Source of the DNA: a virus
Length of the DNA stretch: 64,000 bases
Direction: 5' to 3' (one strand)
IMG/VR virus record: IMGVR_UViG_3300031857_000029
In this document: positions 1 through 40,048 of the stretch, in pieces
Layout of the letters: each line of letters begins with the position of its first letter
Position numbering within the stretch: position 1 is the stretch's first letter
Notes under the pieces: model-generated
Database searches by the model: none
What the model was told of the DNA's origin: nothing
Seen by the model: only the letters and a program-made list of their open reading frames with translations
Position numbers and translations under genes: made by a program

Positions 1-9
1 AGAATCACC

Positions 10-303
10 ATGAGTTGTTTCTTTTGCGGTTCGTCCGTGTCCGCAGATGCAGATACACGGGCAGTTCTTTGTTCACGGTGCACTTCCCGACTCGCGGGAA
101 CACCGACAGAGATAAACAAATTTCCCAAAAGGGAGGTTAGTATGACTGACATTGTTGCTAAGCAGACCAAGGCCCCGAAGGCCGCGAAGACCACCAAGCC
201 GACCGCCGGTTTCGGTCGTGGGTGGCATCTTCGGAAGGAGTTTACCGCTCCGAATGGTGACCGCTATAGCTTCGGTAAGCTCATCACTGTCGAGCAGAAG
301 TAA
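10..303 (+). CDS. Zn-ribbon hypothetical protein, paralogue of 50162..50530
   Basis: CxxC...CxxC then RGW motif; followed by promoter/hairpin. Confidence 0.7.
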   Translation: MSCFFCGSSVSADADTRAVLCSRCTSRLAGTPTEINKFPKREVSMTDIVAKQTKAPKAAKTTKPTAGFGRGWHLRKEFTAPNGDRYSFGKLITVEQK

Positions 304-306
304 GAC

Positions 307-370
307 TTGACATTTTGGAAAACTCCGTTATATTTATGGTACCCAACCCTCTAAATATAGCGGAGTTTTT
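307..370 (+). promoter_or_regulatory. sigma70-like promoter overlapping an inverted repeat
   Basis: TTGACA 307-312, TATATT 329-334; AAAACTCCG...CGGAGTTTT inverted repeat. Confidence 0.55.
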
Positions 371-373
371 TCA

Positions 374-538
374 ATGGAATTCGTACAAGAGATAGTCGGT
401 GAACTACCTCTTTCAGAATTCCGGTCTGTGGCTCAGAAGGTCTTTTTAGGAAACTGGAATGTTGAGTTGTACTACGAAGCGATGGGACTTGATTGGGATG
501 ATGAAGTGGTGGAAAACGAAAACGACAACCTGAATTAA
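374..538 (+). CDS. small acidic hypothetical protein (54 aa)
   Basis: GGAG RBS, ATG..TAA read by hand (MEFVQEIVGELPLSEF...). Confidence 0.55.
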   Translation: MEFVQEIVGELPLSEFRSVAQKVFLGNWNVELYYEAMGLDWDDEVVENENDNLN

Positions 539-552
539 GGTTGTCGTTTTTC
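518..552. terminator. bidirectional intrinsic terminator
   Basis: AAAACGACAACC / GGTTGTCGTTTT hairpin between convergent genes. Confidence 0.75.
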
Positions 553-553
553 T

Positions 554-2644
554 TTATAGTATCTTTTCTAGTTCTTTGATGACCATATCTGCGGTAATCT
601 CACGGGAACATTCGAATTGTCTCAGAGTTCCTTTATGATCTGGGCACCAGTTCCAATCGCCTGGGTCAAACTTATGTCGGTTCCAACATCCAGAACATTT
701 TCCTTTTGGTGCAGATATTCTGATACAATCCTGCATCTCATTGAATGGTTCGGTGAACCCACTTATCATCACGGTTGGTGTTCCCACCGCCCAACTTACC
801 CAGCTCAATCCACTACTGATACCTATGAATGCCTTTGACCTCTTTAATTCTTCTATAACTTTATCAATAGGTGACCTTGGAAATTGTTCTACCCCAGCAG
901 GATTTCGGTTTCCCATATATCCATCTTCTTCTTGGGACAGTAGTTTTACGGTATAACCTCGTTCTTTCAACCAGTTTACTACTTCTTGCCACCCAAATGG
1001 ATTATTCCAGTATTTAGATTGGGCAGTAGAGTGTGTGGCTATGGTCACTAACTTGGAATCTGTATTATCTATGTCGGGTTGTTTTACTTTTGGTTGTATT
1101 TCTTTGTATTCTAATCCCAATATATCTGATGCTATTTGCTGTAAAGAAACACTTATCGGGTTGGTTGGGTGTTTATCGCTGTCAAAAGTATTACCTGTAT
1201 GAAATAATCCAATTACGTACATAGCCATAAGATTATGAGCTGTCTCACCTGGGGTGACAAATGTAATTTCTGGATATTCTGATATGAACAAGTCATTCCA
1301 GAAGGTAGAGCATATTACTTCGCAATTATGTTTCTTTCTAAATTCATCTACATAAGGAATCCAGGCAAAAGTATCTCCTAAAGATTTAGAATCCAAAGCA
1401 ATATATACCCGATTTCCTTTTAATTCTAAATTATATGCCATTGACTGTCCCGTATTCTTTTCGGTAATTTCTACGCGCCAATCAACATAATATTTTATAT
1501 TTGGTTTTGCCCAAGAATTACGAGTCAACTCGGTGTTATAAACCACAGTATCGGTTTTCTTATCAATAAACTTTACGGAATATTTTATATCTTGTCCGCC
1601 AAGGATTTCAGCAAACATTCCATTTATACAATTGAAATTAAACTTTCTCACCTGTGACTTCTTTAGTATTGGTGTATTCTTATAGTGATTTATTAATTGT
1701 TTTTTCATAGAAGGTAACTCATTTGTTGTATAGATAGATACTAACTCTTTTGTTCTGTTGTACCAATCTAATAGTTCTGCATGTTTTCTGGCAGAAGTCG
1801 TATATGCCGTGTAATTCTCTATAACACGCTGTATCCCCTGCACAACCGCACCTACTTCCGCCTCTACAATTTCCATACCATCTAAACTATTGTTCTGCTC
1901 AAATGTTCCCACCACTGGTAATCCGCAAGACAAAGCTTCTACCAATGTTAAGTTTGGATGTCCTGCTTCCAACTGAGAAGGATGTAGAAATATACTATGG
2001 TTACGATATACTGTCAATAGTTCTTCTTCTGACAAGTCATATAGAATAGTTAGTTTATCGTATGTTGGTGGATTCTTCTCAAAATAATTTTTATTGTTAG
2101 ATGGACCAGCGATTGTGATTGGGAGTCCCAATCTCTGTGCTGCTTCTATAGCAATACCAAATCCTTTACGGTCAATTGATTGGTCATACGCATACCCATT
2201 ATTAGCCACACATAATAATTTATGAATAGGTCTAGTATCTGGTCCAGAGAAATATAAAGTGTCTACTCCGTGAGAGAAATACTCTGGGATTCCCTCAAAA
2301 TAATCTACAAGGTATTTTGCAGGAACAAACGATTTTATAGAACCCCGCATGGCCTGTAAGTTTTCTTTATATACTGGAGAATCTTTTCCATATAGATACG
2401 CATGGTGGTCGTGAAATGTAAAATAGTAGGGTATACCAACCTCTTGTAGTTCTAATGCTAAATTTGCAATGTGAACATGTACAACATCATGCTCCCCGTG
2501 TTTTACTTCACTTCTATATAATATACGAGATTCGTGATTTAGATTTAATAAGTTCTTATGGGTTTCCCAAATAATCTTTTCTACCGCACCCCACCCATTC
2601 GGAGGAATAGGTATAAGTCCAGGCGTTACATTTACTATTCGCAT
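554..2644 (-). CDS. GT4 glycosyltransferase fused to autotransporter strand-loop-strand O-heptosyltransferase (Aah/TibC-like) domain
   Basis: N-terminal GT-B (GWGAVEK, EALSCGLPVV); C-terminal SLGDTFAWIPY, STAQSKYWNNP, FIGISSGLSWVSWAVG, ISGF and CxxCWN...WCP...FECS iron-finger-type cysteines. Confidence 0.85.
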   Translation of the reverse strand: MRIVNVTPGLIPIPPNGWGAVEKIIWETHKNLLNLNHESRILYRSEVKHGEHDVVHVHIANLALELQEVGIPYYFTFHDHHAYLYGKDSPVYKENLQAMRGSIKSFVPAKYLVDYFEGIPEYFSHGVDTLYFSGPDTRPIHKLLCVANNGYAYDQSIDRKGFGIAIEAAQRLGLPITIAGPSNNKNYFEKNPPTYDKLTILYDLSEEELLTVYRNHSIFLHPSQLEAGHPNLTLVEALSCGLPVVGTFEQNNSLDGMEIVEAEVGAVVQGIQRVIENYTAYTTSARKHAELLDWYNRTKELVSIYTTNELPSMKKQLINHYKNTPILKKSQVRKFNFNCINGMFAEILGGQDIKYSVKFIDKKTDTVVYNTELTRNSWAKPNIKYYVDWRVEITEKNTGQSMAYNLELKGNRVYIALDSKSLGDTFAWIPYVDEFRKKHNCEVICSTFWNDLFISEYPEITFVTPGETAHNLMAMYVIGLFHTGNTFDSDKHPTNPISVSLQQIASDILGLEYKEIQPKVKQPDIDNTDSKLVTIATHSTAQSKYWNNPFGWQEVVNWLKERGYTVKLLSQEEDGYMGNRNPAGVEQFPRSPIDKVIEELKRSKAFIGISSGLSWVSWAVGTPTVMISGFTEPFNEMQDCIRISAPKGKCSGCWNRHKFDPGDWNWCPDHKGTLRQFECSREITADMVIKELEKIL

Positions 2645-3462
2645 AGTAGGTAGTCCAATACTTCGTTTGTGGATTTTTCTTCCTTAAACCCGTGATATAA
2701 TAGAACTTTACTAGAGTCATGTATATACTCCCAATCAGCTCCAGTTTCGTCTAAATTCTTTCCAAGTCGCGTGTCAGCTACAGCAGACTCTTCAGTTAAT
2801 TTAACAGTATTGATGTCGTGAGTGTTTACGAATATAAATCCTAAACTCTCAGTACCTCCGCGTTTCCAAATACAAACATTAAATGAAGTTTCATCGTGAA
2901 ATGGGTAATACCACTTGCGTCTAGAAATTAGATACTCATTCTTACACATAGAAGTGTATTCTTCAAAGAACTCTTGACAGTTTCTATTGAATACATAGAA
3001 GCACGACCACTGGTATCGCACAGACTTATCTTCTACATTAAAATACTTCATTAATAGCTTTTCATTGTACTCTTGGTAGTTACTTCCATCGGCGTCACGT
3101 GACCAAATAAACGGTAATTCGTGTGGTCCGAACACTCCCAACGCATAGTTGTGATTATGTTTTAGTTTATGAAAGTCCATCCGATGAGAGAAGAGTATGT
3201 CTGTATCTGTGAAGATGAAGTCTTGCTCATCTGGAAACATTTTCATTACATCTAACGACAATTCTGCCTTGTAATAATGGAATGTAGGATAGTTTCTTTC
3301 TGGAATCGGTACTTTTATTAAGTTTTTAGTTTCAAAGGAACTAATGAATCCTATCGTAAAATACACTACTTTAATATCATCGGTCAGATGTGGTTTCATT
3401 GACTTGATACAAGTAATTGCCTGATGTTCGCAAACTTTATTTGTATATAAAAATATAACCAT
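2635..3462 (-). CDS. putative GT-A (GT8-like) glycosyltransferase
   Basis: FTDTD DxD motif, HDETSFN, C-terminal YHG; inside the GT operon. Confidence 0.65.
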   Translation of the reverse strand: MVIFLYTNKVCEHQAITCIKSMKPHLTDDIKVVYFTIGFISSFETKNLIKVPIPERNYPTFHYYKAELSLDVMKMFPDEQDFIFTDTDILFSHRMDFHKLKHNHNYALGVFGPHELPFIWSRDADGSNYQEYNEKLLMKYFNVEDKSVRYQWSCFYVFNRNCQEFFEEYTSMCKNEYLISRRKWYYPFHDETSFNVCIWKRGGTESLGFIFVNTHDINTVKLTEESAVADTRLGKNLDETGADWEYIHDSSKVLLYHGFKEEKSTNEVLDYLLCE

Positions 3463-3463
3463 T

Positions 3464-5440
3464 TTACTTTACCTTAGTTGCGAATATACATTCACTTGTT
3501 CCTGCTGCTTCAAATTGATTTGGCTTAAACTCTTCTACCGTGTATCCCATTAATTTTATTTTATTTAACATCGTAGTATATTTTTGTTTGTAATCCTTTT
3601 CGAAGAAATGGCATTCTAAGAAAATATTATTTACATTTTTAAAAACCGATGGGTCTGCGTGTAAGATGATATCGTATTCCGCTCCTTCGATATCAATCTT
3701 CAATAAGTCTATTTCACCGTATGTACTGGTCAATTGCTCTAATGTTACAGTAGGAACTATCTCGGTCACATTACCCTTTACTCCAGCCATATGTGATTCC
3801 AGTCTATCAGGAGATAAGGTACTACTGATAACTGGATTATCTGGTGAATGGTAGAATGTGATTGGCTCTGGTGAATGGTGTAGTGCCTTTGCCAAAACAG
3901 TAACCGTAGTATTATGTTTAAAGTTTCTTTGTAAGTCTTTCAATGCTTTCTTGTCACATTCAATCGCAACAATCTTCTTGGCAAAATCATTCATTAACAT
4001 ATATGAACTGAATACGCCTACATTTGCACCAGCGTCAACAACGGTTTTATATGGCTTGTTTAACCACTTACCGTATTTTTGGTGAACAAAGTATTCTAAG
4101 AAATTAAATTGGTATGGGACAGAATTACTGAGGGTCAGTGTAGGCAAGTTAACATATGTGTGTACATATGGATGCTCATACAACTGCTCTCCCGTTTCGT
4201 TGTTATAAATGCAAAGCTTAACCCCCATAAAGTTAGGGTCATGTTCATATGAATGTACATGCTTATCAACCGGACGCATCCAATATTCAATATATGGTGC
4301 TAAGGAATCCATTACCGATGACCAGAGTACCGCATTAGATTTATATTCTTTTAATGAAATTAATATTGGAAAATCTATTGGTTGGTCTACCGAATAATAT
4401 ATTTGTTGTTCTTGTAGACTCCATCGAGATGTAAACTTATGATTTGATTTCATTTTTATAGAGGGTGTGGGTACATAGTCTTTTACTAACTTTTCTGCAA
4501 TACGATATGCATTCTTCTGCAAATCTTCTGTAAGATACTCAATTGTTTCGTATTTGTCAAAGTATCCCATATAAACTGGAAGATTGTAAATCAATGACGG
4601 CACCTTCCACCCTAATGATTCTCGGATGACAAGGGGCATAGTTTCCATATCAGTTGCGTGACCACGGGAGGTAAATAGGAATAAGTCTGCGGCTTCATAA
4701 AAGTTATCCACATCTGTCCGTTCATTCCACCACTTACAGTTTGATGGAAAGTCTTTCATCAGTGGTCCCCAATAGAATTTGAAGTTGTCAGCTTGATTCC
4801 CAATGAAATGGAACTGAATCGGGTAATTTTGTAACACCCGTGCATATTCAATAATCTCCGCTTGGTTCTTACGGGGAGTAAACAATCCTACATTAATTAC
4901 ATGCTTAAGATTGGGGTCCAGTCCAAGGTCACGAAGTGCTTGTTCTCTGGTCTTGGTTCTGACTTTATTCTCAATAGGATATTCGACCACATCGCATGGG
5001 ATGTCAAACTTTTTATATAGGTTTTCTTGATACTTACTCACCATCAAGAACTTATCTGGCAAATACACTTTGTTGTCTGTATTATATCCAGAATCGTGTG
5101 AGGTTTCTATAATAGAATAGTTTCTATCGGATGAATACAGTTTATCTGCCACATCTCCTTGCATGAACAGTTCGGGGATTTCTTGTAGATGAATAATGTC
5201 TGGCTGAATTTTCTTAATTACATCGAAAAGTTCATGCTTATTTTCCCCAAGGGTAATCAATCGGTCACCTAATAGATTGACTACTTTGTTACGCTGGACA
5301 ACAAGAACCCCACCTGTCACATTACCCCATTCAACACAATAGACCTCACAATCATCCTTAATGAGTTCTATTTGTTTGACGAGGTATTGGGGCATTCCGC
5401 CCGTTGACAGATGGGGTGCAATAAAAACCACTTTTTTCAT
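3464..5440 (-). CDS. GT4 glycosyltransferase fused to FkbM-family methyltransferase
   Basis: HLSTGGMPQY, RKNQ, ETMPLVIRE (GT4); VVDAGANVG and LLKIDIEGAEY (FkbM). Confidence 0.85.
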   Translation of the reverse strand: MKKVVFIAPHLSTGGMPQYLVKQIELIKDDCEVYCVEWGNVTGGVLVVQRNKVVNLLGDRLITLGENKHELFDVIKKIQPDIIHLQEIPELFMQGDVADKLYSSDRNYSIIETSHDSGYNTDNKVYLPDKFLMVSKYQENLYKKFDIPCDVVEYPIENKVRTKTREQALRDLGLDPNLKHVINVGLFTPRKNQAEIIEYARVLQNYPIQFHFIGNQADNFKFYWGPLMKDFPSNCKWWNERTDVDNFYEAADLFLFTSRGHATDMETMPLVIRESLGWKVPSLIYNLPVYMGYFDKYETIEYLTEDLQKNAYRIAEKLVKDYVPTPSIKMKSNHKFTSRWSLQEQQIYYSVDQPIDFPILISLKEYKSNAVLWSSVMDSLAPYIEYWMRPVDKHVHSYEHDPNFMGVKLCIYNNETGEQLYEHPYVHTYVNLPTLTLSNSVPYQFNFLEYFVHQKYGKWLNKPYKTVVDAGANVGVFSSYMLMNDFAKKIVAIECDKKALKDLQRNFKHNTTVTVLAKALHHSPEPITFYHSPDNPVISSTLSPDRLESHMAGVKGNVTEIVPTVTLEQLTSTYGEIDLLKIDIEGAEYDIILHADPSVFKNVNNIFLECHFFEKDYKQKYTTMLNKIKLMGYTVEEFKPNQFEAAGTSECIFATKVK

Positions 5441-5472
5441 ATGTATAAAACCTTTAATTAAAAGTTAATATG

Positions 5473-6726
5473 TTATGGGCATGTACCAGTTGATACAACA
5501 GCGCCACCGTCCCAACTAATATAACCAACGCCACTTGGACCGCCTGGATCTCTGTAATATCCGGCCGATGCGTAAGTACCAGTTTTGTTACTGAATAATT
5601 GTAGTGTTCCTGCTATGGTACCTGCTCCATCGTTATAGAACACCGTAGTAGTTGTTGCAGCACATACTTCGTTGGTTGTAGCATACGGACCAATACCCGT
5701 AATAGCATATACTCTGATTATTTGTACTGCGTTTTCTAAATTATTAGTAACAACTGTACTAGTGTGCGCAGGTATGGTTGCATCTCTGAACTGTACACTA
5801 CTTTCTATATTGTACTGTGCTCCCGGCCACGACAAACTGTACAAATTTGCAGTAAGACTTGCACTGTAATATGGAAGGTTGTTTGTCGGACTAAGTGGTG
5901 GGTCCGTCACGGTCACATTTATTGTATCAATAGTTACAAGATTATCTGACCGTATTGTTTTGAAATACAGTAATGCGTCTCCTGCTCTATCTGACAAAAA
6001 TTCAGGAGTCCATTGAAGTACTACATACAATGGGTCACCTGCTTCTAAGAAAATTTTGGGAGGATTATCATTATTTGCTACCGGGAACTTATAAGTAAAA
6101 GTTTGTGGTTGACCCGGCGTAAAGTCATCCCACGCAAAATAATTTAAATCCACATCATGCCAAAGACCATGTAGTGTGCGACCCGGATTCGTTCCTAATC
6201 TGGTATACGGACTACCATCTTCAGTAAATGGTGGGGCTATCGGTGTTAGTCCACTTTTAGTTTTTTTAATAGAGGTTAAAACATTGTTAAGTGCATCACC
6301 TGCTTCGGTATACAAAGTATCACTAATGGTGCCGCCGTCGGCGGGTGAAGCTGCGGTTAAGTTACCATCATCAGTAAAGATTGATGAGGTTGGTCTTGTT
6401 CTAAAATCCGCAGGATACGCTACTCCTGGAATTGCCGTAGTTTTGTATACATTCGTCCACGACAAGTTTCCACCACCACGTGTAATGTTGTTTACATTAC
6501 CGGCGGTATTTGATTGTGGAATGATTGGACCTTGTGTCGGGTCTTTATTAACACCGTCGAGTTGTGCTTGCATGGCATTTGACAAAGCTTCTCGCTTTGT
6601 CACCAAAACCGCATTCGATGATGTAGTGGACCCAATAACTCTTCTTTCAAAAAAGTTTGCTGTTGAGGCTGTTCCTCCTAATGTGGCCTCAACTCCGTGG
6701 TCAAATCGTGCATAATATCTAGCCAT
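5473..6726 (-). CDS. hypothetical virion-associated protein
   Basis: 417 aa Thr/Gly-rich ORF preceded by late-type motif. Confidence 0.65.
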   Translation of the reverse strand: MARYYARFDHGVEATLGGTASTANFFERRVIGSTTSSNAVLVTKREALSNAMQAQLDGVNKDPTQGPIIPQSNTAGNVNNITRGGGNLSWTNVYKTTAIPGVAYPADFRTRPTSSIFTDDGNLTAASPADGGTISDTLYTEAGDALNNVLTSIKKTKSGLTPIAPPFTEDGSPYTRLGTNPGRTLHGLWHDVDLNYFAWDDFTPGQPQTFTYKFPVANNDNPPKIFLEAGDPLYVVLQWTPEFLSDRAGDALLYFKTIRSDNLVTIDTINVTVTDPPLSPTNNLPYYSASLTANLYSLSWPGAQYNIESSVQFRDATIPAHTSTVVTNNLENAVQIIRVYAITGIGPYATTNEVCAATTTTVFYNDGAGTIAGTLQLFSNKTGTYASAGYYRDPGGPSGVGYISWDGGAVVSTGTCP

Positions 6727-6800
6727 ATTGAATACTCTCTGTATTAATTATTAATTATAATACTTCTATAAATATCTGTCAAGTGTACATTTGTATTTGT

Positions 6801-7334
6801 TTAACATGCTGATGTATCGCAAAAACCATTACAGCATGCACCAGAACAACAGGTTGAACCATCAATACAAGCGTCCCCCAGCGGAGAACACAGCGTACAG
6901 ATTTCAGTCGCAGTTATAGTACCATTAGTAAAGGTATAACAAGTTTGTCCAGAGAATGTACCACCAGAACATGCGGTTGGAGGAATAAACTTAGTGTTTA
7001 TCAAGGTAGTACATACATTATCGCCCGTATAATATAATGAATTAAAACTATATACTGAAACGTTGCAACTTACTGCACCATTACATATATTATAACAAGT
7101 GTCCCCAGTTTTACCATCTGCAAAGAACGAAGCCTTTTTACTGTGGTCGTAACTCCACCATTCACTTATTGCATCTGGATTGGTTGGTGTTGGATATGGA
7201 TTTTCACAGTTTTGAATTGGACTAAAAAACCCATCCGCTGCGCGACCAATATCAAAACCAGGCTGTGAAGGCACACCAAGTTCTATTCTTATTTGATTAA
7301 AACTAATTAAATTCCCAGTACTTGGTAATACCAT
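6801..7334 (-). CDS. Cys-rich putative fibre tip/adhesin-associated protein
   Basis: N-terminus LPSTGNLISFNQIRIELG resembles phage fibre-accessory proteins; Cys-rich C-terminus; directly follows the fibre gene. Confidence 0.6.
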   Translation of the reverse strand: MVLPSTGNLISFNQIRIELGVPSQPGFDIGRAADGFFSPIQNCENPYPTPTNPDAISEWWSYDHSKKASFFADGKTGDTCYNICNGAVSCNVSVYSFNSLYYTGDNVCTTLINTKFIPPTACSGGTFSGQTCYTFTNGTITATEICTLCSPLGDACIDGSTCCSGACCNGFCDTSAC

Positions 7335-7337
7335 AAC

Positions 7338-10121
7338 CTAGTCCGTCCCTAATTTCTTCTTCAATTCATCAATTTGTTTTTGTTGTTCTTTGATTGCTTC
7401 AATCAGTAATCCAACTATATTGCCATAGGCAACGGAATATTGGTCAATATCTTTTGCATAACTAACCACTTCTGGAATCACTTTCAATGTTTCTTGTGCG
7501 ATTACACCGATACCTCGTTTGTCTTTATCCTTCCAATCAAAGTATACACCACGAAGTTCCATTACTTTCTTTAATGCATCTTGAATAGTTACAATATTTT
7601 TCTTTGCTCGTTCATCAGAATACGCGGTGATATTGTCGGTTCCATAGATTTCGCCGTTCACGTGAAGTGGGTACGATGGAGCACCGCCGATACCCAATCG
7701 ACTATTGGCACTATCCCATCGTAGATTTGCGTAGCTGGTTAACGTAGTTGCTCCAGAGAAAACTGCTACACGGTCTGCCGTACCACCACTAATCGTTCCT
7801 GCGCCGGAAGTACCAGCGGTCCCCGATACTCCCGATGTGCCGGATGACCCGCTGGTTCCGTTGGCACCATTTGCTCCAGAAGTACCAGAACTGCCACTCG
7901 TACCATTTGCTCCAGATGTTCCTGAGCTACCCGATGACCCAGGCGCACCATTGTTACCAGATGTTCCTGATGAGCCACTTGATCCTGGTGCGCCATTGTT
8001 ACCAGAGGTACCAGAGGTACCAGAACTGCCGGATGAACCAGGCGCTCCATTATTTCCTGAGGTACCTGAACTACCTGTTCCTCCACTTGTACCGGATGTT
8101 CCTCCACTACCAGACACACCTGGGAGTCCCATAGCACCATCTCTACCAGATGAACCCGATGAACCCGAGGTGCCTGATGTTCCTGTAGAACCACTACTTC
8201 CAGATGTTCCCGATGTACCAGAACTTCCGCTTGTTCCTGCCGTTCCACTACTTCCTGCGGTTCCCGATGTTCCCGCACTTCCCGATGTGCCTGATGTTCC
8301 TGCCGAACCACTGGTGCCAGTTGTTCCAGAACTTCCGCTTGTTCCCGTTGTTCCAGAACTTCCACTTGTGCCCGTAGTTCCTGAACTACCCGAAGTGCCG
8401 CTAGTACCACTACTTCCGCTTGTTCCATTTTGACCAGATGTGCCTGAGCTTCCATTTTGCCCTGATGTACCGGCACTTCCGCTTGTTCCTGTTGAACCTG
8501 AACTGCCTGAAGTTCCCGTGCTACCGCTTGAGCCAGATGTTCCACTTGTTCCTGAACTACCGTTTATGCCAGATGTTCCAGAACTTCCGCCGCCACCTGT
8601 TGGACCCGGTAATCCCATTGCCCCATCGCGGCCAGAACTGCCAGAAGTACCTGATGTTCCACTTGTGCCCGCGGACCCAGATGTACCAGCAGTGCCACTT
8701 GTTCCAGAACTACCAGAAGTTCCAGTTGAGCCTGAACTACCAGCTGTGCCAGAAGACCCAGATGAACCTGAGGTACCTTGGACTCCAGATGTTCCAGAAC
8801 TACCATCAAAATAGTTAACGTTTTTTATCGGTGTGTATCCAGATGAACCCGCAGTGCCAGAACTACCGGCGGTCCCCGATGTTCCACTGGTTCCTGCTGT
8901 ACCGGATGTACCCACAGGTAGTTGTGCAACAATTAATAAAACATTTTCATCATTTGAGAATGAATATGTTGATTGAACTAATACTATTGGGAATGTCCAG
9001 TACGCATTGGGTCCAGTTTCTACACCAGTCCCCACCGTCCATTTTTGAAAATTACTTGAATTGTCCGCATCTTGTATTACTATCAACGACCCTGATGGGA
9101 TGATAGCTAAGAAAATATCTATATCTTCATTATTTTGGTCTAAATGGCTTACGACAAGTTCCGTAGCTGATGCTTGTGTAGCGTTGTTCCAGAGGATATG
9201 ACCACTACCAGGATTACCTGATGTTGCATTTGTGTTTGCTTGATATGGGAACAAGTCATTGGACTGTCCGTCTTTACCACTAGTTCCAGCTGTACCAGAT
9301 GTGCCCCCACTACCCGACACGCCGGGTAACCCCATAGCACCATCACGACCTGAGCTGCCTGATGACCCCGATGTTCCTGCGCTACCAGAAGTACCCGAGC
9401 TACCAGAGGTACCTGAAGTTCCTGAACTACCTCCAGTACCAGATGACCCCGAAGTACCAGAACTTCCAGTAGTTCCAGAAGTACCAGAAGTACCATTTAT
9501 GCCAGAGGAGCCTGACGAGCCAGCGGTACCAGCGGTTCCACCACCGCCGACTGGGCCTGGAAGCCCCATTGCGCCGTCACGGCCGGAACTACCCGATGTT
9601 CCTGTACTTCCAGAAGTACCAGATGTACCATCTCGTCCAGAAGAACCCGATGTACCCGGATTACCTTGATTACCTTGTATACCAGGAAGACCCATTGCTC
9701 CATCTCTTCCACTTGAGCCTGAGGTTCCTGCCGTTCCTGCCGTTCCAGATGTACCATCTGCTCCAGATGTACCAGAACTACCACCGCCACCTACTGGACC
9801 TGGAAGCCCCATAGCTCCATCTCTACCAGAACTACCTGATGAACCTGATGAACCTGGTGCTCCGTTTGCGCCACTAGTACCGCTGGTACCAAATGTTTCT
9901 CCACTAGTTCCACTACTACCCGCAGAAGAACCGCCGCCTACACCAGCGATTAGATATCCACCGGGTTTATTGTCGCCGGCGTGTAATCGAATAACTCCAA
10001 ATCCACTTGCTGTTGTGGATTCTATATCCGCAGTAAGAACGCCAGGCAATCCAACATACGCAGCGTTAGACCCTGACGTTCCTCGTAATATCTGAAATTC
10101 TGTGATATTATTATTTGGCAT
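7338..10121 (-). CDS. collagen-like (Gly-X-Y, Ser/Thr-rich) tail fibre with C-terminal peptidase S74 intramolecular chaperone
   Basis: Long GSS/GTS/GTA triplet runs; C-terminal SDERAKKNI...GVIAQE...LLIEAIKEQQKQIDEL. Confidence 0.85.
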   Translation of the reverse strand: MPNNNITEFQILRGTSGSNAAYVGLPGVLTADIESTTASGFGVIRLHAGDNKPGGYLIAGVGGGSSAGSSGTSGETFGTSGTSGANGAPGSSGSSGSSGRDGAMGLPGPVGGGGSSGTSGADGTSGTAGTAGTSGSSGRDGAMGLPGIQGNQGNPGTSGSSGRDGTSGTSGSTGTSGSSGRDGAMGLPGPVGGGGTAGTAGSSGSSGINGTSGTSGTTGSSGTSGSSGTGGSSGTSGTSGSSGTSGSAGTSGSSGSSGRDGAMGLPGVSGSGGTSGTAGTSGKDGQSNDLFPYQANTNATSGNPGSGHILWNNATQASATELVVSHLDQNNEDIDIFLAIIPSGSLIVIQDADNSSNFQKWTVGTGVETGPNAYWTFPIVLVQSTYSFSNDENVLLIVAQLPVGTSGTAGTSGTSGTAGSSGTAGSSGYTPIKNVNYFDGSSGTSGVQGTSGSSGSSGTAGSSGSTGTSGSSGTSGTAGTSGSAGTSGTSGTSGSSGRDGAMGLPGPTGGGGSSGTSGINGSSGTSGTSGSSGSTGTSGSSGSTGTSGSAGTSGQNGSSGTSGQNGTSGSSGTSGTSGSSGTTGTSGSSGTTGTSGSSGTTGTSGSAGTSGTSGSAGTSGTAGSSGTAGTSGSSGTSGTSGSSGSTGTSGTSGSSGSSGRDGAMGLPGVSGSGGTSGTSGGTGSSGTSGNNGAPGSSGSSGTSGTSGNNGAPGSSGSSGTSGNNGAPGSSGSSGTSGANGTSGSSGTSGANGANGTSGSSGTSGVSGTAGTSGAGTISGGTADRVAVFSGATTLTSYANLRWDSANSRLGIGGAPSYPLHVNGEIYGTDNITAYSDERAKKNIVTIQDALKKVMELRGVYFDWKDKDKRGIGVIAQETLKVIPEVVSYAKDIDQYSVAYGNIVGLLIEAIKEQQKQIDELKKKLGTD

Positions 10122-10209
10122 AGATTCCTAATAAATCGTTATAAAATACACTCCCTATAAATATCTGATTATAACGGGTTTATCCAATTATTACCCTATT
10201 ACGGACCAA

Positions 10210-10296: not shown

Positions 10297-12441
10297 ATGA
10301 CCAAGCACAAAGCACACAGTTCCTATTGGGTTGACGATACTTCCGTCTTTGATTTCGATACGGAGGATGTCAATAAGGATGAGCTTGACGTTTCTGCGGG
10401 TATTGACCGTATCGTGAAGCTTGCTACGATTCGTCGAGCTGTTGCCAACTTCGTTCGTATTCTCACGAATGATTCTTCTATTCATGTTAAGTATTCGTCA
10501 GGTCGGGATTCATACACCGATGGTAAGACGGTGGTGATTTCGGCTGACCACAATACTTCAAACTTTGACCCGATGGTTGGTCTTGCTTTGCATGAAGGGT
10601 CGCACTGTCTCCTTTCTGATTTCGGTTTCCTTCGTGCGATTAATCAACATCACGAAGTGTTCTACTCTGCGCTTCATCCCGACCTTCGGAAGTTGGTGAA
10701 GGTGAAGGCGGTTCGTGACGGTAATTATGATGTTTATGACAACATGCGTGAGAATCAGGCTATTCTCAATACACTTCGTCGGTATATTCAGCAGTTGATG
10801 AATATCATTGAGGACCGCCGTATTGATTCGTATGTGTATCGTTCGGCTCCTGGCTATCGTCCGTACTATGATGCGATGTATAAGAAGTATTTCTTTAATT
10901 CTGATGTGGAAAAGAATCTCCAGTTCAATCCCGACTGGCGTAAGCCGACTGTGGAGAATTATGTGAATTGGCTTCTTATGATTTTCTCTCCGCACTTTGA
11001 CAAGAAGGCGTTGCCGGGGCTGTCCAAGATGGTAGATATGATTGACCTCCAGAACATTCGTCGTTTTGATGAGAAGCATATGCCGGATTCTATCCGATGG
11101 AAGAAGTCTGGTGCGGTTGTATCCAATCCTGTTGCTGATAATGAACTTGTTGTTTACCATTATGACCAGTTCCCGCTTCTGTGGAAGACTGCGAACGAGC
11201 TGATGGTGGAGATTCTCAAGCGCGCCAAGTTCTATGCTGACCAAGAGGATGAGAACAATTCTGGCGATGATGGAATGGATGGTATTCCTATTGAGATGGA
11301 AGATGATGGCAAGGAGCTGGAGGGTGAGGGGATGCCGAATTATGACCTTCCACAGAAGAAGTTTAATGCGGGTAGGGGTAAGAAGGCAATGGAGAAGATG
11401 AAGGACATTCAGAATCAGACTGCTCGTAAGAAGAAAATTAAGAAGAATGAGCAGACGCAGATTGAGTCTATGGAATCTGCGGCGGCTGAAATGTCGGAGA
11501 ATTCTGACCCGATTTATGGAAAGGTTCCGTGCCTCGTTACGAAGAAGCTCACGAAGGAAATTATGAAGTCGGATTGGTTCCCATTTGCGAATGTGTGGGC
11601 GTTTAGTGGTGATGGTACGTGGCGCGACTCTGACCGTAACCAGACCTATCGTGGATTCCTTGCTGGGATTCGTATGGGACAGGTTCTCGCTCATAAGTTG
11701 CAGGTTCGTAACGAGCCGCAGATTACACACTTTACTCGTCAAGAGCATGGGAAGATTGACCGCCGTATCCTCTCGCAGTTGGGAATGGATATTGAGAATG
11801 TGTTCAAGCGGACTACGGTTGATTCGTACAATCCGGCTCTTCTCTATCTGTCGGTGGATGCCTCTGGTTCGATGTGGGGTGGCAAGTGGGAGCGTGTGAT
11901 GACGGTGATGACGGCTCTTGCCTTCGCCGCTGATAAGATTCGTAATCTTGATGTGGTGATTTCGCTCCGTGGAAATGTCGGTAGTGGGATTCCGACTGTG
12001 GCGGTTGTGTATGATAGCCGTGTAGATACGTTCGTCAAGGCGAAGGCACTGTTCCCATACCTTGCGTCTAACGGTTCTACTCCTGAGGGATTGTGCTACC
12101 ACAGCACGATTGAGTTGATGCAGGAGTGTGTCAAGACGCACACGGTATACTTCATCAACTTCTCTGATGGTGAGCCGGGGTGCTCGTTCAGCCACAACGG
12201 AAAGCGGTTTGACTATGGTGGTGAGCAGGCGATGAAGCAGACCAAGAATACGGTTCGTATCATGCGTGAGATGGGGATTCGTATTATGAGTTACTTCATT
12301 AGTGACTATCATTCTCACAATGAGTCCTACACGACGAAGTTCTTCCGCAATATGTATGGGCAAGAGGCGGAGTTCGTGGATGTAAAGAATGTGGTGAATG
12401 TTCTTAAGACCTTGAACAAGCTCCTACTGATTAAGGAATAA
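10297..12441 (+). CDS. vWA-domain protein with N-terminal HExxH metallopeptidase-like domain (CobT-like MoxR partner)
   Basis: LHEGSH, NIIEDRRID; MIDAS VDASGSM, STPEG, FSDGEP. Confidence 0.85.
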   Translation: MTKHKAHSSYWVDDTSVFDFDTEDVNKDELDVSAGIDRIVKLATIRRAVANFVRILTNDSSIHVKYSSGRDSYTDGKTVVISADHNTSNFDPMVGLALHEGSHCLLSDFGFLRAINQHHEVFYSALHPDLRKLVKVKAVRDGNYDVYDNMRENQAILNTLRRYIQQLMNIIEDRRIDSYVYRSAPGYRPYYDAMYKKYFFNSDVEKNLQFNPDWRKPTVENYVNWLLMIFSPHFDKKALPGLSKMVDMIDLQNIRRFDEKHMPDSIRWKKSGAVVSNPVADNELVVYHYDQFPLLWKTANELMVEILKRAKFYADQEDENNSGDDGMDGIPIEMEDDGKELEGEGMPNYDLPQKKFNAGRGKKAMEKMKDIQNQTARKKKIKKNEQTQIESMESAAAEMSENSDPIYGKVPCLVTKKLTKEIMKSDWFPFANVWAFSGDGTWRDSDRNQTYRGFLAGIRMGQVLAHKLQVRNEPQITHFTRQEHGKIDRRILSQLGMDIENVFKRTTVDSYNPALLYLSVDASGSMWGGKWERVMTVMTALAFAADKIRNLDVVISLRGNVGSGIPTVAVVYDSRVDTFVKAKALFPYLASNGSTPEGLCYHSTIELMQECVKTHTVYFINFSDGEPGCSFSHNGKRFDYGGEQAMKQTKNTVRIMREMGIRIMSYFISDYHSHNESYTTKFFRNMYGQEAEFVDVKNVVNVLKTLNKLLLIKE

Positions 12442-12459
12442 AAGAATAAATCGGAAATA

Positions 12460-12489
12460 GGAAACCTCCACAGAAATGTGGGGGTTTTC
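12460..12489 (+). terminator. intrinsic terminator
   Basis: AAACCTCCACA-GAAA-TGTGGGGGTTT hairpin plus T tract. Confidence 0.75.
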
Positions 12490-12533
12490 TGTTATTATAT
12501 CCTATTTATATATTGACCTCTTTAGGTGATTAT

Positions 12534-13907
12534 ATGACACAGCACAAGATTGTAAAAATACCAGATTGGGTAACGCCAGAATCGGAAACATTTTTAAATG
12601 AAGTAGGCTTACAAGGTTGGGAATTGGTGCATTTGTACAATCAACATGCGTACATGAAAGCTTCAACTGCTGGAACCTTAGCAAGTGGTTCTACAAGTAC
12701 GGCGGTGGATGCATTTGGTCGTCAACGTGTGTCCGAAGTTTATACACTAAATGATTACAAACACATTTATGCAATTGACAATAACTTCGTTGATTTCACC
12801 GCATCGAATGGAACGATAACATTTAATCCAAATCGTTCATCGGTAACCCTCGCTGTTCCAGCGACATCAGGAAGTCGTGCAGTACATCAAACAAAGATGT
12901 ATCACAACTATATGCCGGGAAAGAGTCAATTAATTCTTAGCAGTGTTGTAATGGGTGCAGCACAAGCTGGAGTCATTAAACGCACTGGATATTATGATGA
13001 CCACAATGGTATCTTCATTGAACAAGACCAAACAGGTAGTTTACAACTTGTTATTCGTTCATCTACTAATGGCACTGGGTCAATAACAGAAGAACGAGTT
13101 AAACAAGAAAACTGGAGTATCAATACACTACTCTCTGGTGATTTCGTACTTGATATTACCAAATCACAACTCTTCTATATTGATTTCCAATGGTTAGCAG
13201 TTGGTCGTGTTCGTTGTGGATTCGTATATAAAGGAAGCACGGTTATCTGTCATACCTTTGACCACTCAAATACAACTGCGGTGGCATATATGACGAACCC
13301 AAATCTTCCTATTCGTTGTGAAGTCATCAACACATCCACAGCTTCTACAGGAAGTATGGAACAAATCTGTTCGACGGTTGGTAGTGAAGGTGGATATATG
13401 GAAAGTGGGATTGCACAAGCACTGAGTAGTCCATCCCTTCGTAGTTTAACGTCCAGTGCAACGATGCCTGTGATGGCCGTTCGATTAAAAAATTCATATT
13501 CGGGATTACCAAATCGTGCATTCGTTCGTGTGACCAGTGTTGGTGCATTTACAGAAAGTCAAACGGTGCAATATCAATTAGTAAAACTTCCAGCGTCCTC
13601 CTCACTTATTGGCGGTAGTTGGGTGTCGGTAGGTGATAATTCTGTTGTTGAATATAACACCACCGCAACTTCGTATGGATTAACTAGTGGTAGTGCATTA
13701 CTTGGTGGATTTATTTTCGCAGGTGGTGTTGGTGGTGGTAATAATATCGCCGGACAACAACAAACACCTGGTATTGATACCCGCGTTAATTTCATCGCCC
13801 AAAACTATAATAGTGATAATAGTGAAATTTATATACTTGCTGTAAAAAATATGACTACCAGCACTACCAACATTGGTGGTACTATAATGTGGAGAGAAGT
13901 TTACTAA
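12534..13907 (+). CDS. conserved phage hypothetical protein (beta-rich, possibly virion)
   Basis: Long ORF, AGGTGA RBS before ATG 12534, DAFGRQRVS motif, TATTTATA upstream. Confidence 0.7.
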   Translation: MTQHKIVKIPDWVTPESETFLNEVGLQGWELVHLYNQHAYMKASTAGTLASGSTSTAVDAFGRQRVSEVYTLNDYKHIYAIDNNFVDFTASNGTITFNPNRSSVTLAVPATSGSRAVHQTKMYHNYMPGKSQLILSSVVMGAAQAGVIKRTGYYDDHNGIFIEQDQTGSLQLVIRSSTNGTGSITEERVKQENWSINTLLSGDFVLDITKSQLFYIDFQWLAVGRVRCGFVYKGSTVICHTFDHSNTTAVAYMTNPNLPIRCEVINTSTASTGSMEQICSTVGSEGGYMESGIAQALSSPSLRSLTSSATMPVMAVRLKNSYSGLPNRAFVRVTSVGAFTESQTVQYQLVKLPASSSLIGGSWVSVGDNSVVEYNTTATSYGLTSGSALLGGFIFAGGVGGGNNIAGQQQTPGIDTRVNFIAQNYNSDNSEIYILAVKNMTTSTTNIGGTIMWREVY

Positions 13908-14210: not shown

Positions 14211-14269
14211 AATCTTAATGAAATCTTAATGTTGGTGAAATTGACAAATACGAGTGTGCGGTATATATT
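14211..14269 (+). promoter_or_regulatory. operator copy 2 plus sigma70 promoter
   Basis: 23-bp repeat then TTGACA(14241)-17-TATATT(14264). Confidence 0.8.
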
Positions 14270-14307
14270 TCAGTATGTTCAAAATCACACCAAACTACGA
14301 GGGTTAC

Positions 14308-15471
14308 ATGGATACGATTGTAAAGGTTCTGGATGATATGACTGCTGTTGACGCCAACGGTAAGGATGTGACCCGCAAGGTTCCAGTCCACGCCCGTAAG
14401 CGAGCCCTCCACAATGAGTGTGCTCTTCGTCTGGTCAAGACCAAGACGGGTAAGACGCAGTGGCGTGACACCGACCTTTCCGATTTCGAGGCTCTTGCCA
14501 AGCAGGCGGTTCCGACCAAGCGCACTGGTAATGTGAAGAACGAGTTGGAGAAGGATGTTACCGATTTCCTTTCCAAGTGCGAGGAGTTGAAGCCCGACCA
14601 TCTCATTATCTCGCCGTTGAAGTGGCGGTATCTGATGCGCTCGGTTCTTCGTGGTAAGAATATTCTGATGACTGGTCCTTCGGGTTGTGGTAAGACTCTT
14701 GCCGCTCAGACGATTGCGGGAGCACTGGACGGTCGTGAGTTCTTCTACTTCAATGTCGGTGCGACCCAAGACCCGCGTTCTACTCTTATCGGAAATACCC
14801 ATTACAGCAAGGACAAGGGAACCTTCGTCGCAGAGGCTCTGTTCGTCAAGGCGATTCAGACGCCGAACGCTATCATTCTTCTTGACGAGCTGACCCGTGG
14901 TCACGCTGACGCCTGGAATATTCTGATGACGGTGCTTGACGAGAATCAGCGGTATCTTCGTATTGACGAAATGCCGAATACGCCGACCATCAAGGTGGCG
15001 AAGGGTGTGACCTTTATCGCCACTGCGAACATCGGTGCTGAGTATACTGCAACCCGTGTTCTTGACCGAGCAATGTTGGACCGTTTCGCTTCGATTGTCG
15101 AGATGGAGCCGCTCAGCATGAGTGATGAGGTCACGCTTCTTCAGATGACCTATCCTGAGGTTGAGATTAACCTTCTGGAGTCTATCGCAGAGATTGCTGA
15201 CCACACCAGGCAGCAGGTTCGTAGCGAAGACCCGAAGGTGACCACCTCTATCTCGTCACGTATCACGGTCGAGATGGCGGGTCTATTGAATGATGGGTTC
15301 TCACTTGCGGAGACGGCTGAGGCTTGTATCTATCCCTTCTTCTCAAACGCCGGTGGGAATGACTCTGAGCGGACCTATATGAAGCAGTTGGTCCAGAAGT
15401 ATCTCCCCGTGGCCGGTGGTGCTACTGCTCCGTGGGAGCAGCCGACGAAGAACCCTGCGGACCCCTTTTAA
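14308..15471 (+). CDS. MoxR/CbbQ/CobS-type AAA+ ATPase
   Basis: Walker A GPSGCGKT, Walker B ILLDELTR, ATAN, LDRAMLDRF; GAGG RBS before ATG 14308. Confidence 0.9.
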   Translation: MDTIVKVLDDMTAVDANGKDVTRKVPVHARKRALHNECALRLVKTKTGKTQWRDTDLSDFEALAKQAVPTKRTGNVKNELEKDVTDFLSKCEELKPDHLIISPLKWRYLMRSVLRGKNILMTGPSGCGKTLAAQTIAGALDGREFFYFNVGATQDPRSTLIGNTHYSKDKGTFVAEALFVKAIQTPNAIILLDELTRGHADAWNILMTVLDENQRYLRIDEMPNTPTIKVAKGVTFIATANIGAEYTATRVLDRAMLDRFASIVEMEPLSMSDEVTLLQMTYPEVEINLLESIAEIADHTRQQVRSEDPKVTTSISSRITVEMAGLLNDGFSLAETAEACIYPFFSNAGGNDSERTYMKQLVQKYLPVAGGATAPWEQPTKNPADPF

Positions 15472-36722: not shown

Positions 36723-37208
36723 ATGAAGAACCATTTTTATGCCGCATGGGGTGCTTGGTGGTTACTAATTACGCCACTCCCAGCCCAAGAAAAAGAAATA
36801 TTTGTTGAAAAGGTGACCAATTCTGTCGTGATTGGTCCAGTAGCAGGAAATCGTGGTCTTGAATTTGGGGTAAAAAATATCCTTGAAGAATTCCTACTGG
36901 AAAAGGAATACAATCTTAATCCAAAATCACCAGCACGACTTCAAGTTGAAATTATATTCTTGGATGTACTGACCACCAAAAAGAATGTCTCCGTGTTCCA
37001 TTCAAACGCAGAAACGGTTGTTATACGGTTGCGTGGAACAATGGTTGTTAATGGTAAGAAGGGGAAACCCGTGGTTGTTGAAGAAAGTTCTTCGGAAATT
37101 TCTATGTCTACTTTGTTGATTGACGAAGGCGGCAAATTCAACCAAACAAGTCTCTCAAACGCCTTAAAAAAATCTTGTGAGAGCTTGATTAACAAACTAT
37201 CGGAGTAA
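36723..37208 (+). CDS. secreted CsgG/TolB-N-like alpha-beta protein
   Basis: Signal peptide; FGVKNILEEFL and FNQTSLSNALKK parallel LGVTNIVVEYL and FNQSTIGTSTKK of 40748. Confidence 0.55.
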   Translation: MKNHFYAAWGAWWLLITPLPAQEKEIFVEKVTNSVVIGPVAGNRGLEFGVKNILEEFLLEKEYNLNPKSPARLQVEIIFLDVLTTKKNVSVFHSNAETVVIRLRGTMVVNGKKGKPVVVEESSSEISMSTLLIDEGGKFNQTSLSNALKKSCESLINKLSE

Positions 37209-37209
37209 T

Positions 37210-39255: not shown

Positions 39256-39262
39256 GAGCAAT

Positions 39263-39640
39263 ATGAAAAACTATTTACGATACGGGATAATTTCCCTTTT
39301 GGTAATTGGTTGCTACGACAATAATATTTTTAATCCAGATATGAGTAAACCACTTGATTTGGGAGTGACATCAACCTCCACAAAGTTTAGAACACAAAAA
39401 GTTACGACTACGGATGGTCACGCATCGGTATTAGTTGAAGTCACACCAGGTGCGTTGTATAGTTTACAACTTACCAGTATTGATGGTAAGATATTAGCAG
39501 TAGAAGGATTTACCGCAGATAAAGTCAATCAAGTCATCGACCTTGACTATACCAAGATTAAAAATGGTTCTTATGACTTAAACCTACTGGATGTCTCTGG
39601 CAACGTTGTCAAGATTCCAGTAATCATCAACAAACAATAG
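39263..39640 (+). CDS. lipoprotein with Ig-like (T9SS-CTD/FlgD-like) domain
   Basis: VIGC lipobox; YSLQLTSIDGKIL...NGSYDLNLLD...IINKQ. Confidence 0.6.
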   Translation: MKNYLRYGIISLLVIGCYDNNIFNPDMSKPLDLGVTSTSTKFRTQKVTTTDGHASVLVEVTPGALYSLQLTSIDGKILAVEGFTADKVNQVIDLDYTKIKNGSYDLNLLDVSGNVVKIPVIINKQ

Positions 39641-39649
39641 GAGAGTGTT

Positions 39650-39919: not shown

Positions 39920-40048
39920 CCGTATGACTCCCGAAGAGGTTAAAGATTACGGTGAACGAGTAGAAGTTATGGCTAAAAAAGAACCTGCTTACGCAGGTTG
40001 GGGTTTCTTTTACTATGAATCAACTCATACCAATGAGGAAATTAATCT

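Follow-up and report, generated by a model that had tools for sequence, protein, structure and literature searches.

Does a phage decorate its own tail fiber with sugar? The question is raised by a locus at positions 554-10121, on the minus strand, of the 64-kb stretch of viral DNA analyzed here (the window; IMG/VR virus record IMGVR_UViG_3300031857_000029). Six open reading frames (ORFs), P0001 to P0006, are tightly packed in this locus, with intergenic gaps of -10 to 74 nucleotides (nt). An earlier note, made from the letters of the DNA, had described a minus-strand run of a fiber gene and five further genes, several of them for glycosyltransferases (GTs), and had proposed that an Aah/TibC-like O-heptosyltransferase primes a Ser/Thr-rich collagen fiber with a sugar; all six ORFs are where it placed them. 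We found that the C-terminal domain of P0006 is, by sequence, a member of the Aah/TibC (BAHT) family, that the catalytic residues of this family are conserved in it, and that such domains in phages are coupled, both statistically and in gene order, to Ser-rich collagen. On this evidence, we think it probable, with real room for doubt, that a phage-encoded system glycosylates the virion fiber by O-glycosylation of Ser at the Y position of the collagen triplets, followed by extension and methylation of the glycan.

P0006 (554-2644, minus strand) is a fusion of an N-terminal GT4-type domain (residues about 1 to 300, nt 1745-2644; PF13692 at 31.5 bits and PF00534 at 29.7 bits) with an Aah/TibC-like O-heptosyltransferase domain (residues 350 to 695, nt 560-1597). 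Using TIGR04414 (hepto_Aah_TibC), the hidden Markov model of the "autotransporter strand-loop-strand O-heptosyltransferase," which has a curated equivalog cutoff of 200 bits, we determined whether this second domain belongs to the family. It scored 294.3 bits (E 1.2e-87) over model positions 27 to 374 of 374, so that it passed the profile check that had been suggested for it, and its phage relatives scored 285 to 317 bits. It also matched the TibC structure 4RAP over about 340 residues (E 7e-57). The N-terminal beta-barrel of TibC was partly detected (PF21129, TibC_1st, 17 bits, under the cutoff of 27), and there was a weak secondary match to the lipopolysaccharide (LPS) heptosyltransferase model TIGR02193 (35 bits). 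BAHT enzymes are also recognized by an adjacent autotransporter; P0006 has none beside it, and the neighboring repetitive Ser-rich protein is a collagen-like tail fiber.

To examine the active site, we mapped the TibC residues described in PMC4358343 onto the HMMER alignment and onto 105 distinct phage domains. D424, in the sequence SLGDTFAW, corresponds to the catalytic base Asp110, which is the residue mutated in the TibC structure 4RB4 (PMC4358343). It is invariant in the 105 phage domains, as are the equivalent of Phe368 and three of the four residues that bind ADP-heptose in TibC, T540 (Thr226 in TibC), K544 (Lys230), and W615 (Trp305); the fourth is Arg286. The four cysteines of the predicted iron finger, C650, C653, C667, and C679 (Cys339, 342, 358, and 370), are likewise invariant, which bears out the description of P0006 as a GT4 fused to an Aah/TibC-like domain with a Cys iron finger. 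At the position that governs stereoselectivity (Pro300 in TibC, Ser294 in AAH), the phage domains always have Ser (S611 in P0006), and AAH, with its Ser, accepts both heptose epimers (PMC4358343). In TibC, the dodecamer is built through the N-terminal beta-barrel and a beta-hairpin thumb. The thumb of the P0006 domain is 3 residues shorter than that of TibC, and the F265/V266 pair at its tip is replaced by Y576/M577.

The candidate substrate, P0001 (7338-10121, minus strand), is a collagen-like tail fiber of 927 amino acids (aa) that matches Pfam Collagen (PF01391; 231 bits, E 7e-70), Peptidase_S74 (PF13884; 54.5 bits, E 1.5e-14), and many tail-fiber PHROGs. Its 191 G-X-Y triplets (573 residues) fall into three blocks, at residues 78 to 287 (nt 9261-9890), 404 to 430 (nt 8832-8912), and 440 to 775 (nt 7797-8804), with a noncollagen insert at about residues 288 to 403. 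The long GSS/GTS runs seen earlier are borne out by the counts, with 62 GTS and 46 GSS triplets. Ser occupies the Y position in 112 triplets, Pro is scarce, with only 14 residues, and six GRDGAMGLPG blocks punctuate the repeats. From YSDERAKKN (residue 835; nt 7341-7619) onward, the C terminus is a self-cleaving S74 intramolecular chaperone. With its G-X-Y runs and a Peptidase_S74 domain that has the Ser/Lys cleavage motif, P0001 has the features of an S74 collagen fiber, and a triple helix is predicted for it.

Co-occurrence of this kind of GT with Ser-rich fibers across phages was among the expectations of the earlier note. It was observed in forward, control, reverse, and whole-genome comparisons, and it is not universal, with one clade set apart and exceptions in both directions. 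A forward scan of IMG/VR with the P0006 domain yielded 283 stretches, of which the best 80 were examined first; a second scan, seeded with the domain of Microcystis phage Mel-JY01, yielded 345 relatives and recovered diverse fused forms (690 to 1,312 aa). In most of the fused-form loci, a collagen ORF lies 0.03 to 5.4 kb away, with 60 to 99% Ser plus Thr at its X/Y positions. Counting a cluster as positive if a collagen ORF of 90 aa or more, with a Ser-plus-Thr fraction of at least 0.55 at X/Y, lay within 10 kb, we found 20 of 29 phage TibC-like clusters (70% identity) to be positive. The pairing is found in Mel-JY01, where a GT4-FkbM-TibC triple fusion has a collagen ORF of 1,016 aa or more as its neighbor, and also in a 735-kb megaphage. 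In a quick tree, the enzymes encoded by stand-alone, collagen-free genes form one group (98% by the Shimodaira-Hasegawa-like approximate likelihood ratio test) that is sister to the window plus its closest relative, the 56-kb contig L002/G002; outside that group, 24 of 33 are collagen linked. An initial conclusion that co-occurrence fails, drawn from a single positive among the 80 best relatives, was dropped, as 77 of those 80 belong to the one stand-alone clade.

As a control, we took 80 loci by the S74 C-terminal domain of the fiber, independently of TibC. The sole TibC-like gene in this sample lies in L161, and a large Ser/Thr collagen (3,190 aa) is likewise confined to that locus. The other 11 collagen fibers are of the type G-[I/T/L]-Q, with Gln at Y at a frequency of 0.66 and Ser at 0.02, while the 30 TibC-linked collagens have Thr (0.50) or Ser (0.36) at X and Ser at Y at 0.66 (up to 0.99). 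Fisher tests gave p = 6e-14 for presence and 9e-5 for composition, values that overstate the significance because the loci are not fully independent. In a reverse sample of 76 contigs picked solely by similarity to G-T/S-S collagen, most of them less than 30% complete, a TibC-like gene was present in the locus in 22 and elsewhere on the contig in 10 more, for a total of 32/76. All three large contigs that are at least 59% complete (G019, G029, and G050) were positive, and three small phages (21 to 40 kb) were negative. Since about 350 stretches encode a TibC-like domain among roughly 2.9 million viral contigs, the gene is enriched among Ser/Thr-collagen contigs by orders of magnitude over background.

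In complete or large genomes (137 to 343 kb), the collagen genes are almost confined to a region within about 6 to 17 kb of the TibC-like gene. G003 (complete, 253 kb) has just two collagen ORFs, both within about 8 kb of it, the main collagen ORF of G004 (complete, 343 kb) is about 6 kb away, and the three giant collagen ORFs of G006 (137 kb) are all within about 17 kb. In Mel-JY01 (190 kb), collagen matches flank the TibC fusion on both sides and are found solely there; G005 (178 kb) has two collagen ORFs near the TibC-like gene and one far from it.

The remaining enzymes of the locus would be needed to build on a first sugar. P0004 (3464-5440, minus strand; 658 aa) joins a GT4-type (GT-B) part (about nt 4481-5440; Glycos_transf_1, PF00534, 40.7 bits) to an FkbM methyltransferase part (about nt 3542-4057) that is above the family cutoffs of both TIGR01444 (90.7 bits; cutoff, 37.7) and PF05050 (63.1 bits; cutoff, 22.7), so both halves of the GT4-FkbM fusion read from the letters are recognized by family profiles. 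A homologue of its GT4 part adjoins the TibC-like gene in 75 of the 82 first loci, where it is fused to Methyltransf_24. A GT4 with an O-methyltransferase (FkbM here, Methyltransf_24 elsewhere) is thus, by sequence family, a conserved partner across lineages, and this suggests a methylated oligosaccharide. P0005 (2635-3462, minus strand; 275 aa) has no Pfam, PHROG, or NCBIfam match, even at E = 5. Its AlphaFold2 model, built from 34 homologues (pLDDT 92.3), matches ABO GTA/GTB, BoGT6a, and alpha-1,3-GalT (Foldseek probability 1.0, E about 1e-8, with a TM score of only about 0.5), and D86-T87-D88 (DTD) is invariant across the 34 homologues. The call of P0005 as a GT-A-fold, GT6-like retaining GT rests on fold and not on a sequence profile, because only Foldseek gave matches. 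With this proviso for P0005, the earlier inventory of four GT domains plus FkbM proved correct.

We used the contig of the closest relative as a proxy for the DNA to the left of the window. It shows 64% identity and a conserved gene order. Beyond the locus, it continues into a convergent island that encodes a DUF1599 protein, a GT2, a Methyltransf_24 protein, a NAD-dependent epimerase/GDP-mannose-dehydratase-type enzyme, and a GT7. This corrects the earlier note: there is a larger glycan island, of which positions 554-10121 make up no more than the right-hand end.

The genes of the locus had been taken to be cotranscribed. The motif TATTTATA lies at 10156-10163 (minus strand), 35 to 42 nt upstream of the fiber start codon, and a second copy lies at 6767-6774 (minus strand), ahead of P0003; the motif therefore stands 35 to 48 nt upstream, on the coding strand, of both the fiber gene and the block from P0003 to P0006. 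There are 13 copies in the window against 4.4 expected, a number reached in 0 of 100 shuffles, and they mostly lie tens of nucleotides ahead of genes, including a virion structural gene (examples are at 6767, 10156, 12503, 13917, 36650, 52043, and 58080). We regard the motif as a candidate late promoter element. The second copy overlaps a perfect sigma-70-like promoter, TTGACA-17-TATAAT (6754-6782, minus strand), in the 74-nt gap between P0002 and P0003, both being consensus matches. Coregulation through the common motif is plausible, and cotranscription is supported in part; we hold two coregulated units and one transcript to be equally likely.

How might these parts work together? In the scheme that we propose, donor and acceptor, the sequence in which the GTs act, and the advantage gained are all inferred. 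The TibC-like domain of P0006 would act in the cytoplasm of the host late in infection and move a sugar onto the hydroxyl groups of Ser in the G-[T/S]-S repeats of P0001; by family assignment, this sugar would be heptose from ADP-heptose. The timing would fit, as the presence of TATTTATA ahead of the GT block, the fiber gene, and structural genes supports it. The likeliest acceptor would be the Y-position Ser ahead of each Gly. TibC modifies Ser and not Thr, for example Ser313 in N-S-G-G, and is active on synthetic peptides (PMC4358343), so a folded beta-helix is not required. The Y-position Ser in G-T-S-G would offer the same Ser-Gly context once per triplet, which fits the acceptor preference of TibC. 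Transfer would occur on unfolded chains, prior to S74-driven trimerization. The glycan would then be extended by the two GT4 domains and the GT6-like GT-A enzyme and O-methylated by the FkbM domain, with sugar nucleotides supplied in part by the adjacent glycan island. The end product would be a densely O-glycosylated, nearly proline-free collagen stalk, and the benefit could be helix stabilization, shielding from proteases or lectins, or receptor interaction. For stabilization there is a precedent in worm cuticle collagen, with its glycosylated Y-position Thr.

Heptose is the best-supported assignment of the donor sugar and is unproven. In the clade with stand-alone TibC-like genes, HldC- and HldA-like genes directly follow the TibC-like gene, and such genes also occur in the fused-type loci L093, L097, L099, L101, L106, and L114. 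The best NCBIfam matches in the stand-alone clade are rfaE domain II for the 129-aa cytidylyltransferase-like protein (100.7 bits) and rfaE domain I for the 250-aa PfkB kinase (116.9 bits), both under the trusted cutoffs. These two rfaE domains are the two halves of HldE. The 343-kb genome G004 encodes HldA-like (301 bits), HldC-like (107 bits), and GmhA-like (188 bits) proteins.

A number of observations weigh against the proposal that the phage glycosylates its collagen fiber with heptose. Both acceptor and sugar are deduced from the letters of the DNA. Collagen is not among the known BAHT substrates, which are beta-helical autotransporters, and the synteny with the fiber could merely reflect a hypervariable host-recognition region. 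Arg286 of TibC contacts adenine, and the R286A exchange cripples the enzyme (PMC4358343); the corresponding residue is V596 in P0006 and V, L, or I in nearly all phage members, and the predicted nucleotide contact of the P0006 domain differs from that of TibC. The N-terminal GT4 fusion may be incompatible with the TibC dodecamer. No HldA/HldC homologue was found in the window by phmmer, no PfkB gene in the 56-kb contig G002, and no HldA-, HldC-, or GmhA-like gene in the complete G003 or in G005, G006, and Mel-JY01, which would leave host ADP-heptose or another donor. Three fused TibC loci with full flanks (L112, L125, and L120) have no collagen, several other negatives being truncated loci. 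About 115 loci form a clade in which the fiber that goes with a stand-alone TibC-like gene is a giant one without collagen. The enzyme of this clade is about 383 aa long with no collagen nearby, and the gene order is a fiber of 1,200 to 2,300 aa with a Gp53-like tail-fiber C terminus and an intein, small ORFs, GT4-Methyltransf_24, the TibC-like gene, the cytidylyltransferase-like and PfkB genes, further genes, and terminase. Lastly, one of the three small TibC-negative phages (27 kb, 93% complete) encodes a fiber of Ser/Thr collagen and lacks TibC, GT1, and GT2 genes, so a Ser/Thr collagen does not require a phage GT. A further candidate argument, that the substitution of Val for Arg286 signals a non-ADP donor, was dropped because the same substitution occurs in the clade with adjacent rfaE-like genes.

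What else could the enzymes be for? The GT cluster, including the TibC-like domain, might remodel the host envelope (LPS, O-chain, or surface glycoproteins), which would block superinfection or keep progeny from sticking to debris, and the fiber gene would be a mere neighbor. GTs and rfaE in the tail-fiber "host recognition clusters" of aquatic T4-like myophages have been seen in this way (PMC7029224), GT9 relatives are LPS heptosyltransferases, with the weak TIGR02193 match as their trace here, and a larger glycan island with GT2, GT7, epimerase/dehydratase, and methyltransferase genes adjoins the locus in the closest relative. However, the domain scores 294 bits against the protein O-heptosyltransferase model and 35 against the LPS enzymes, the GT block bears the late-type motif of structural genes, and envelope remodeling would explain neither the switch of the neighboring collagen from G-x-Q to G-T/S-S in the presence of TibC nor the clustering of collagen genes at the TibC gene in whole genomes. 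We therefore consider it unlikely. The phage enzymes might instead modify DNA or nucleotides, as phage GTs often do, in a sugar hypermodification that evades restriction; the closest relative has a DUF1599 ("nucleotide modification associated") gene in its adjacent island, and the window encodes a PurZ-like enzyme. Since the domain belongs to a protein O-heptosyltransferase family and has no similarity to known DNA GTs, since the locus is a late, fiber-linked block, and since covariation with collagen would go unexplained, this is highly improbable.

A virion protein could also be glycosylated in a different way, with the TibC-like domain not priming or the collagen repeats not serving as the acceptor. 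For instance, a GT4 or the GT-A enzyme could start the glycan and TibC add heptose to a sugar, or the target could be P0003, P0002, the noncollagen insert, or another structural protein. The GT4-methyltransferase that adjoins the TibC-like gene in most of the first loci would suit enzymes that always act together, the noncollagen partner fiber of the stand-alone clade suggests that BAHT-like phage enzymes can have noncollagen targets, and P0003 and P0002 lie between the fiber and the GT genes. Yet every characterized BAHT enzyme acts directly on protein Ser (PMC4358343), the signal that tracks TibC presence is specifically Ser at collagen Y, and homologues of P0002 accompany fibers without any TibC gene. 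We regard this alternative as rather unlikely and continue with priming of the collagen repeats by the TibC-like domain.

Among known systems, the closest is that of TibC/AAH (TIGR04414; PDB 4RAP/4RB4; PMC4358343), with which P0006 shares the catalytic Asp, the Thr226/Lys230/Trp305 set, Phe368, the four Cys of the 1Fe-0S finger, and a place beside a long, repetitive, Ser-rich surface fiber as presumed substrate; the Ser at the stereoselectivity position is shared with AAH. P0006 differs in being viral rather than proteobacterial, in its GT4 fusion, in Val for Arg286, and in the shorter thumb with Y-M for F-V. Additionally, its candidate substrate is a predicted collagen triple helix rather than a beta-helical autotransporter, and the set of several GTs and a methyltransferase implies an oligosaccharide rather than a single heptose.

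Glycosylated collagen-like fibers are known from the exosporium, as in SgtA-BclA3 of Clostridioides difficile (PMC7157674) and BclA of Bacillus anthracis (Daubenspeck 2004, as summarized in PMC9614988). In these systems a GT gene adjoins, as it does here, the gene for a collagen-like protein; the repeats are G-X-[Thr], O-glycosylation is at the hydroxy-amino acid in the Y position, and the enzyme is active on peptides. The glycan of BclA is extended to an oligosaccharide that ends in a methylated sugar. Priming there is by a GT-A/TPR O-GlcNAc transferase (or a rhamnosyl system) and not by a BAHT enzyme, and GPT repeats on a bacterial spore surface stand in place of G-T/S-S on a virion. In mimivirus, the collagen hydroxylase/glucosyltransferase L230 (PMC9614988) is a virus enzyme that glycosylates virus-encoded, proline-poor collagen-like proteins, and one TibC-like fusion (P0185) carries a PLOD-type GT domain. 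L230 belongs to a eukaryotic giant virus, uses a GT-A domain, and targets hydroxylysine, its enzyme family and linkage being unrelated. Mycobacteriophage GTs, according to what Freeman et al. reportedly described in 2023, O-glycosylate phage structural proteins in the cytoplasm; the sugars are said to be placed on the C-terminal tails of capsid and tail-tube proteins by GT2/GT-A enzymes, with Actinobacteria as hosts. No BAHT enzyme, heptose pathway, or collagen is known to be part of that system. The host-recognition clusters of pelagimyophages and cyanomyophages, which are aquatic T4-like myophages, likewise mix tail-fiber genes with GTs and rfaE, and these genes have been read as modifying the host O-chain, as "LPS-related AMGs," that is, auxiliary metabolic genes (PMC7029224); our data point to the fibers themselves as the substrate, not the host O-chain. 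None of the non-BAHT systems compared joins a BAHT enzyme with collagen or a virus, and in the literature on TibC or heptosyltransferases in phages, phage collagen-fiber glycosylation, and Mel-JY01, we found no description of the enzyme-fiber pairing.

To our knowledge, the BAHT enzymes known so far all modify beta-helical autotransporters of Proteobacteria and are associated with virulence. The more than 300 viral contigs that carry the domain indicate a much wider role, in which a phage BAHT family is coupled to collagen-like tail fibers whose repeat composition covaries with the presence of the enzyme. Given the recurrence of the enzyme-fiber pairing in many unrelated phages, G-[T/S]-S fibers are probably sugar coated. 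If so, phage virion glycosylation would gain a second case with a mechanism of its own, and proline-free collagen a route to stabilization or shielding; the annotation of GT, rfaE, and gmhA genes in aquatic phage genomes would change, and compact pairs of enzyme and substrate would become available for producing defined O-heptosylated repeat proteins. We suggest, tentatively, that aquatic phages may have adopted the BAHT family for a "glyco-collagen," a proline-free G-[T/S]-S triple helix in which almost every triplet bears an oligosaccharide that contains heptose and is methylated, so that sugars would take over the helix-stabilizing part of hydroxyproline. Many "LPS-related auxiliary metabolic genes" (GTs, rfaE/hldE, and gmhA) from host-recognition regions of cyanophages, pelagiphages, and jumbo phages would then serve virion glycosylation rather than remodeling of the host surface.

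The two other proteins of the locus lie between the fiber and the GTs. P0002 (6801-7334, minus strand), expected to be Cys rich, has 16 Cys in 177 aa and no Pfam, PHROG, or NCBIfam match, even at E = 5. Its relatives follow S74-type fibers in the TibC-negative loci L162, L164, L165, L168, L171, L193, and L198; because they occur in loci without a TibC gene, we take P0002 to be a fiber (tip) partner and not glycosylation machinery. P0003 (5473-6726, minus strand; 417 aa) had been called Thr rich, and at 13% Thr it is so to a mild degree. It has no match in the same three collections, again even at E = 5, and a homologue at the corresponding place in L002. In its AlphaFold2 model (pLDDT 82), an alpha/beta head is followed by Ig-like beta-sandwich domains, and a fold search gave generic, domain-level Ig-like matches with TM scores of 0.21 or less. 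The model suggests that P0003 is probably structural or adhesin-like. Directly beyond the P0006 stop codon, a hairpin with a 14-bp stem and a T-run (518-551), found by pattern matching, separates the P0006 unit from the convergent genes on the left.

The source is a large lake myophage; the window carries 29 tRNA genes, and a structural protein encoded in it is nearest to T4-like cyanomyophage proteins (42%). Megablast of the locus and of positions 37000-47700 against 50,697 phage records gave no match, there is no near relative of the window among deposited phages, and a TibC-like gene is absent from G001 (40 kb), the nearest record.

Across the TibC-like family as a whole, a representative search returned 1,516 clusters (50% identity) at E <1e-3 and 752 at E <1e-30. 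The top members are mostly multidomain fusions of up to about 2,000 aa with FkbM, Methyltransf_24, GT_PLOD, or DXD GTs. P0185, a metagenomic protein of 1,827 aa, combines a GT4, a PLOD-type (collagen-glycosylating) GT, DUF6625, FkbM, and a TibC-like domain, and fusions of the P0128 type have two or three TibC-like stretches in one protein.

Some TibC-linked collagens have a different repeat. In three lineages, L096 (5418-13982), L103 (1-3900), and L117 (2335-4326), G-T-N alternates with G-T-S, with Thr at X at 0.78 to 0.95 and Asn at Y at 0.42 to 0.62. Each Asn lies in an N-G-T sequon, so N-linked modification is possible besides the O-linked one. In Mel-JY01 (L001, PP395634.1), positions 1-3052 form a single plus-strand frame of 1,016 aa, open at the start of the record, with Collagen matches throughout; the deposited annotation has minus-strand ORFs at 1-651 and 739-2298 and a short plus-strand ORF at 2519-3052, probably a miscall over a collagen gene.

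In the stand-alone clade, the giant fiber of L012 (2-6934) carries a Hint/intein module (PF14890, PF07591, and PF01079) at residues about 1730 to 2032, before the Gp53-like C terminus. L023 has a 529-aa protein (31% Thr; 3748-5337) and a radical-SAM/SPASM enzyme (5357-7366) between the fiber and the GT genes, an insertion found in some loci of this clade. The interval from the TibC cluster to terminase encodes a conserved protein of 639 to 1,490 aa in L012 (12607-17079) and Mel-JY01 (11243-13162). Its N terminus is nicotinamide mononucleotide (NMN)-adenylyltransferase-like, and the L012 copy also has a GNAT domain; in Mel-JY01 the annotation reads simply "cytidylyltransferase like."

Elsewhere in the window, a 337-aa ORF at 45802-46815 (plus strand) matches phrog_1211, the PurZ-type (2-amino)adenylosuccinate synthetase family (E 2e-69). 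This could mean that a modified purine is produced by the phage, or the gene may be no more than a PurA-like auxiliary metabolic gene. Divergent from the fiber gene, on the plus strand, are a 714-aa ORF without a PHROG match (10297-12441) and a gene for a 405-aa AAA+/MoxR-like ATPase (phrog_249; 14254-15471), with a virion structural gene (phrog_1645) between them.

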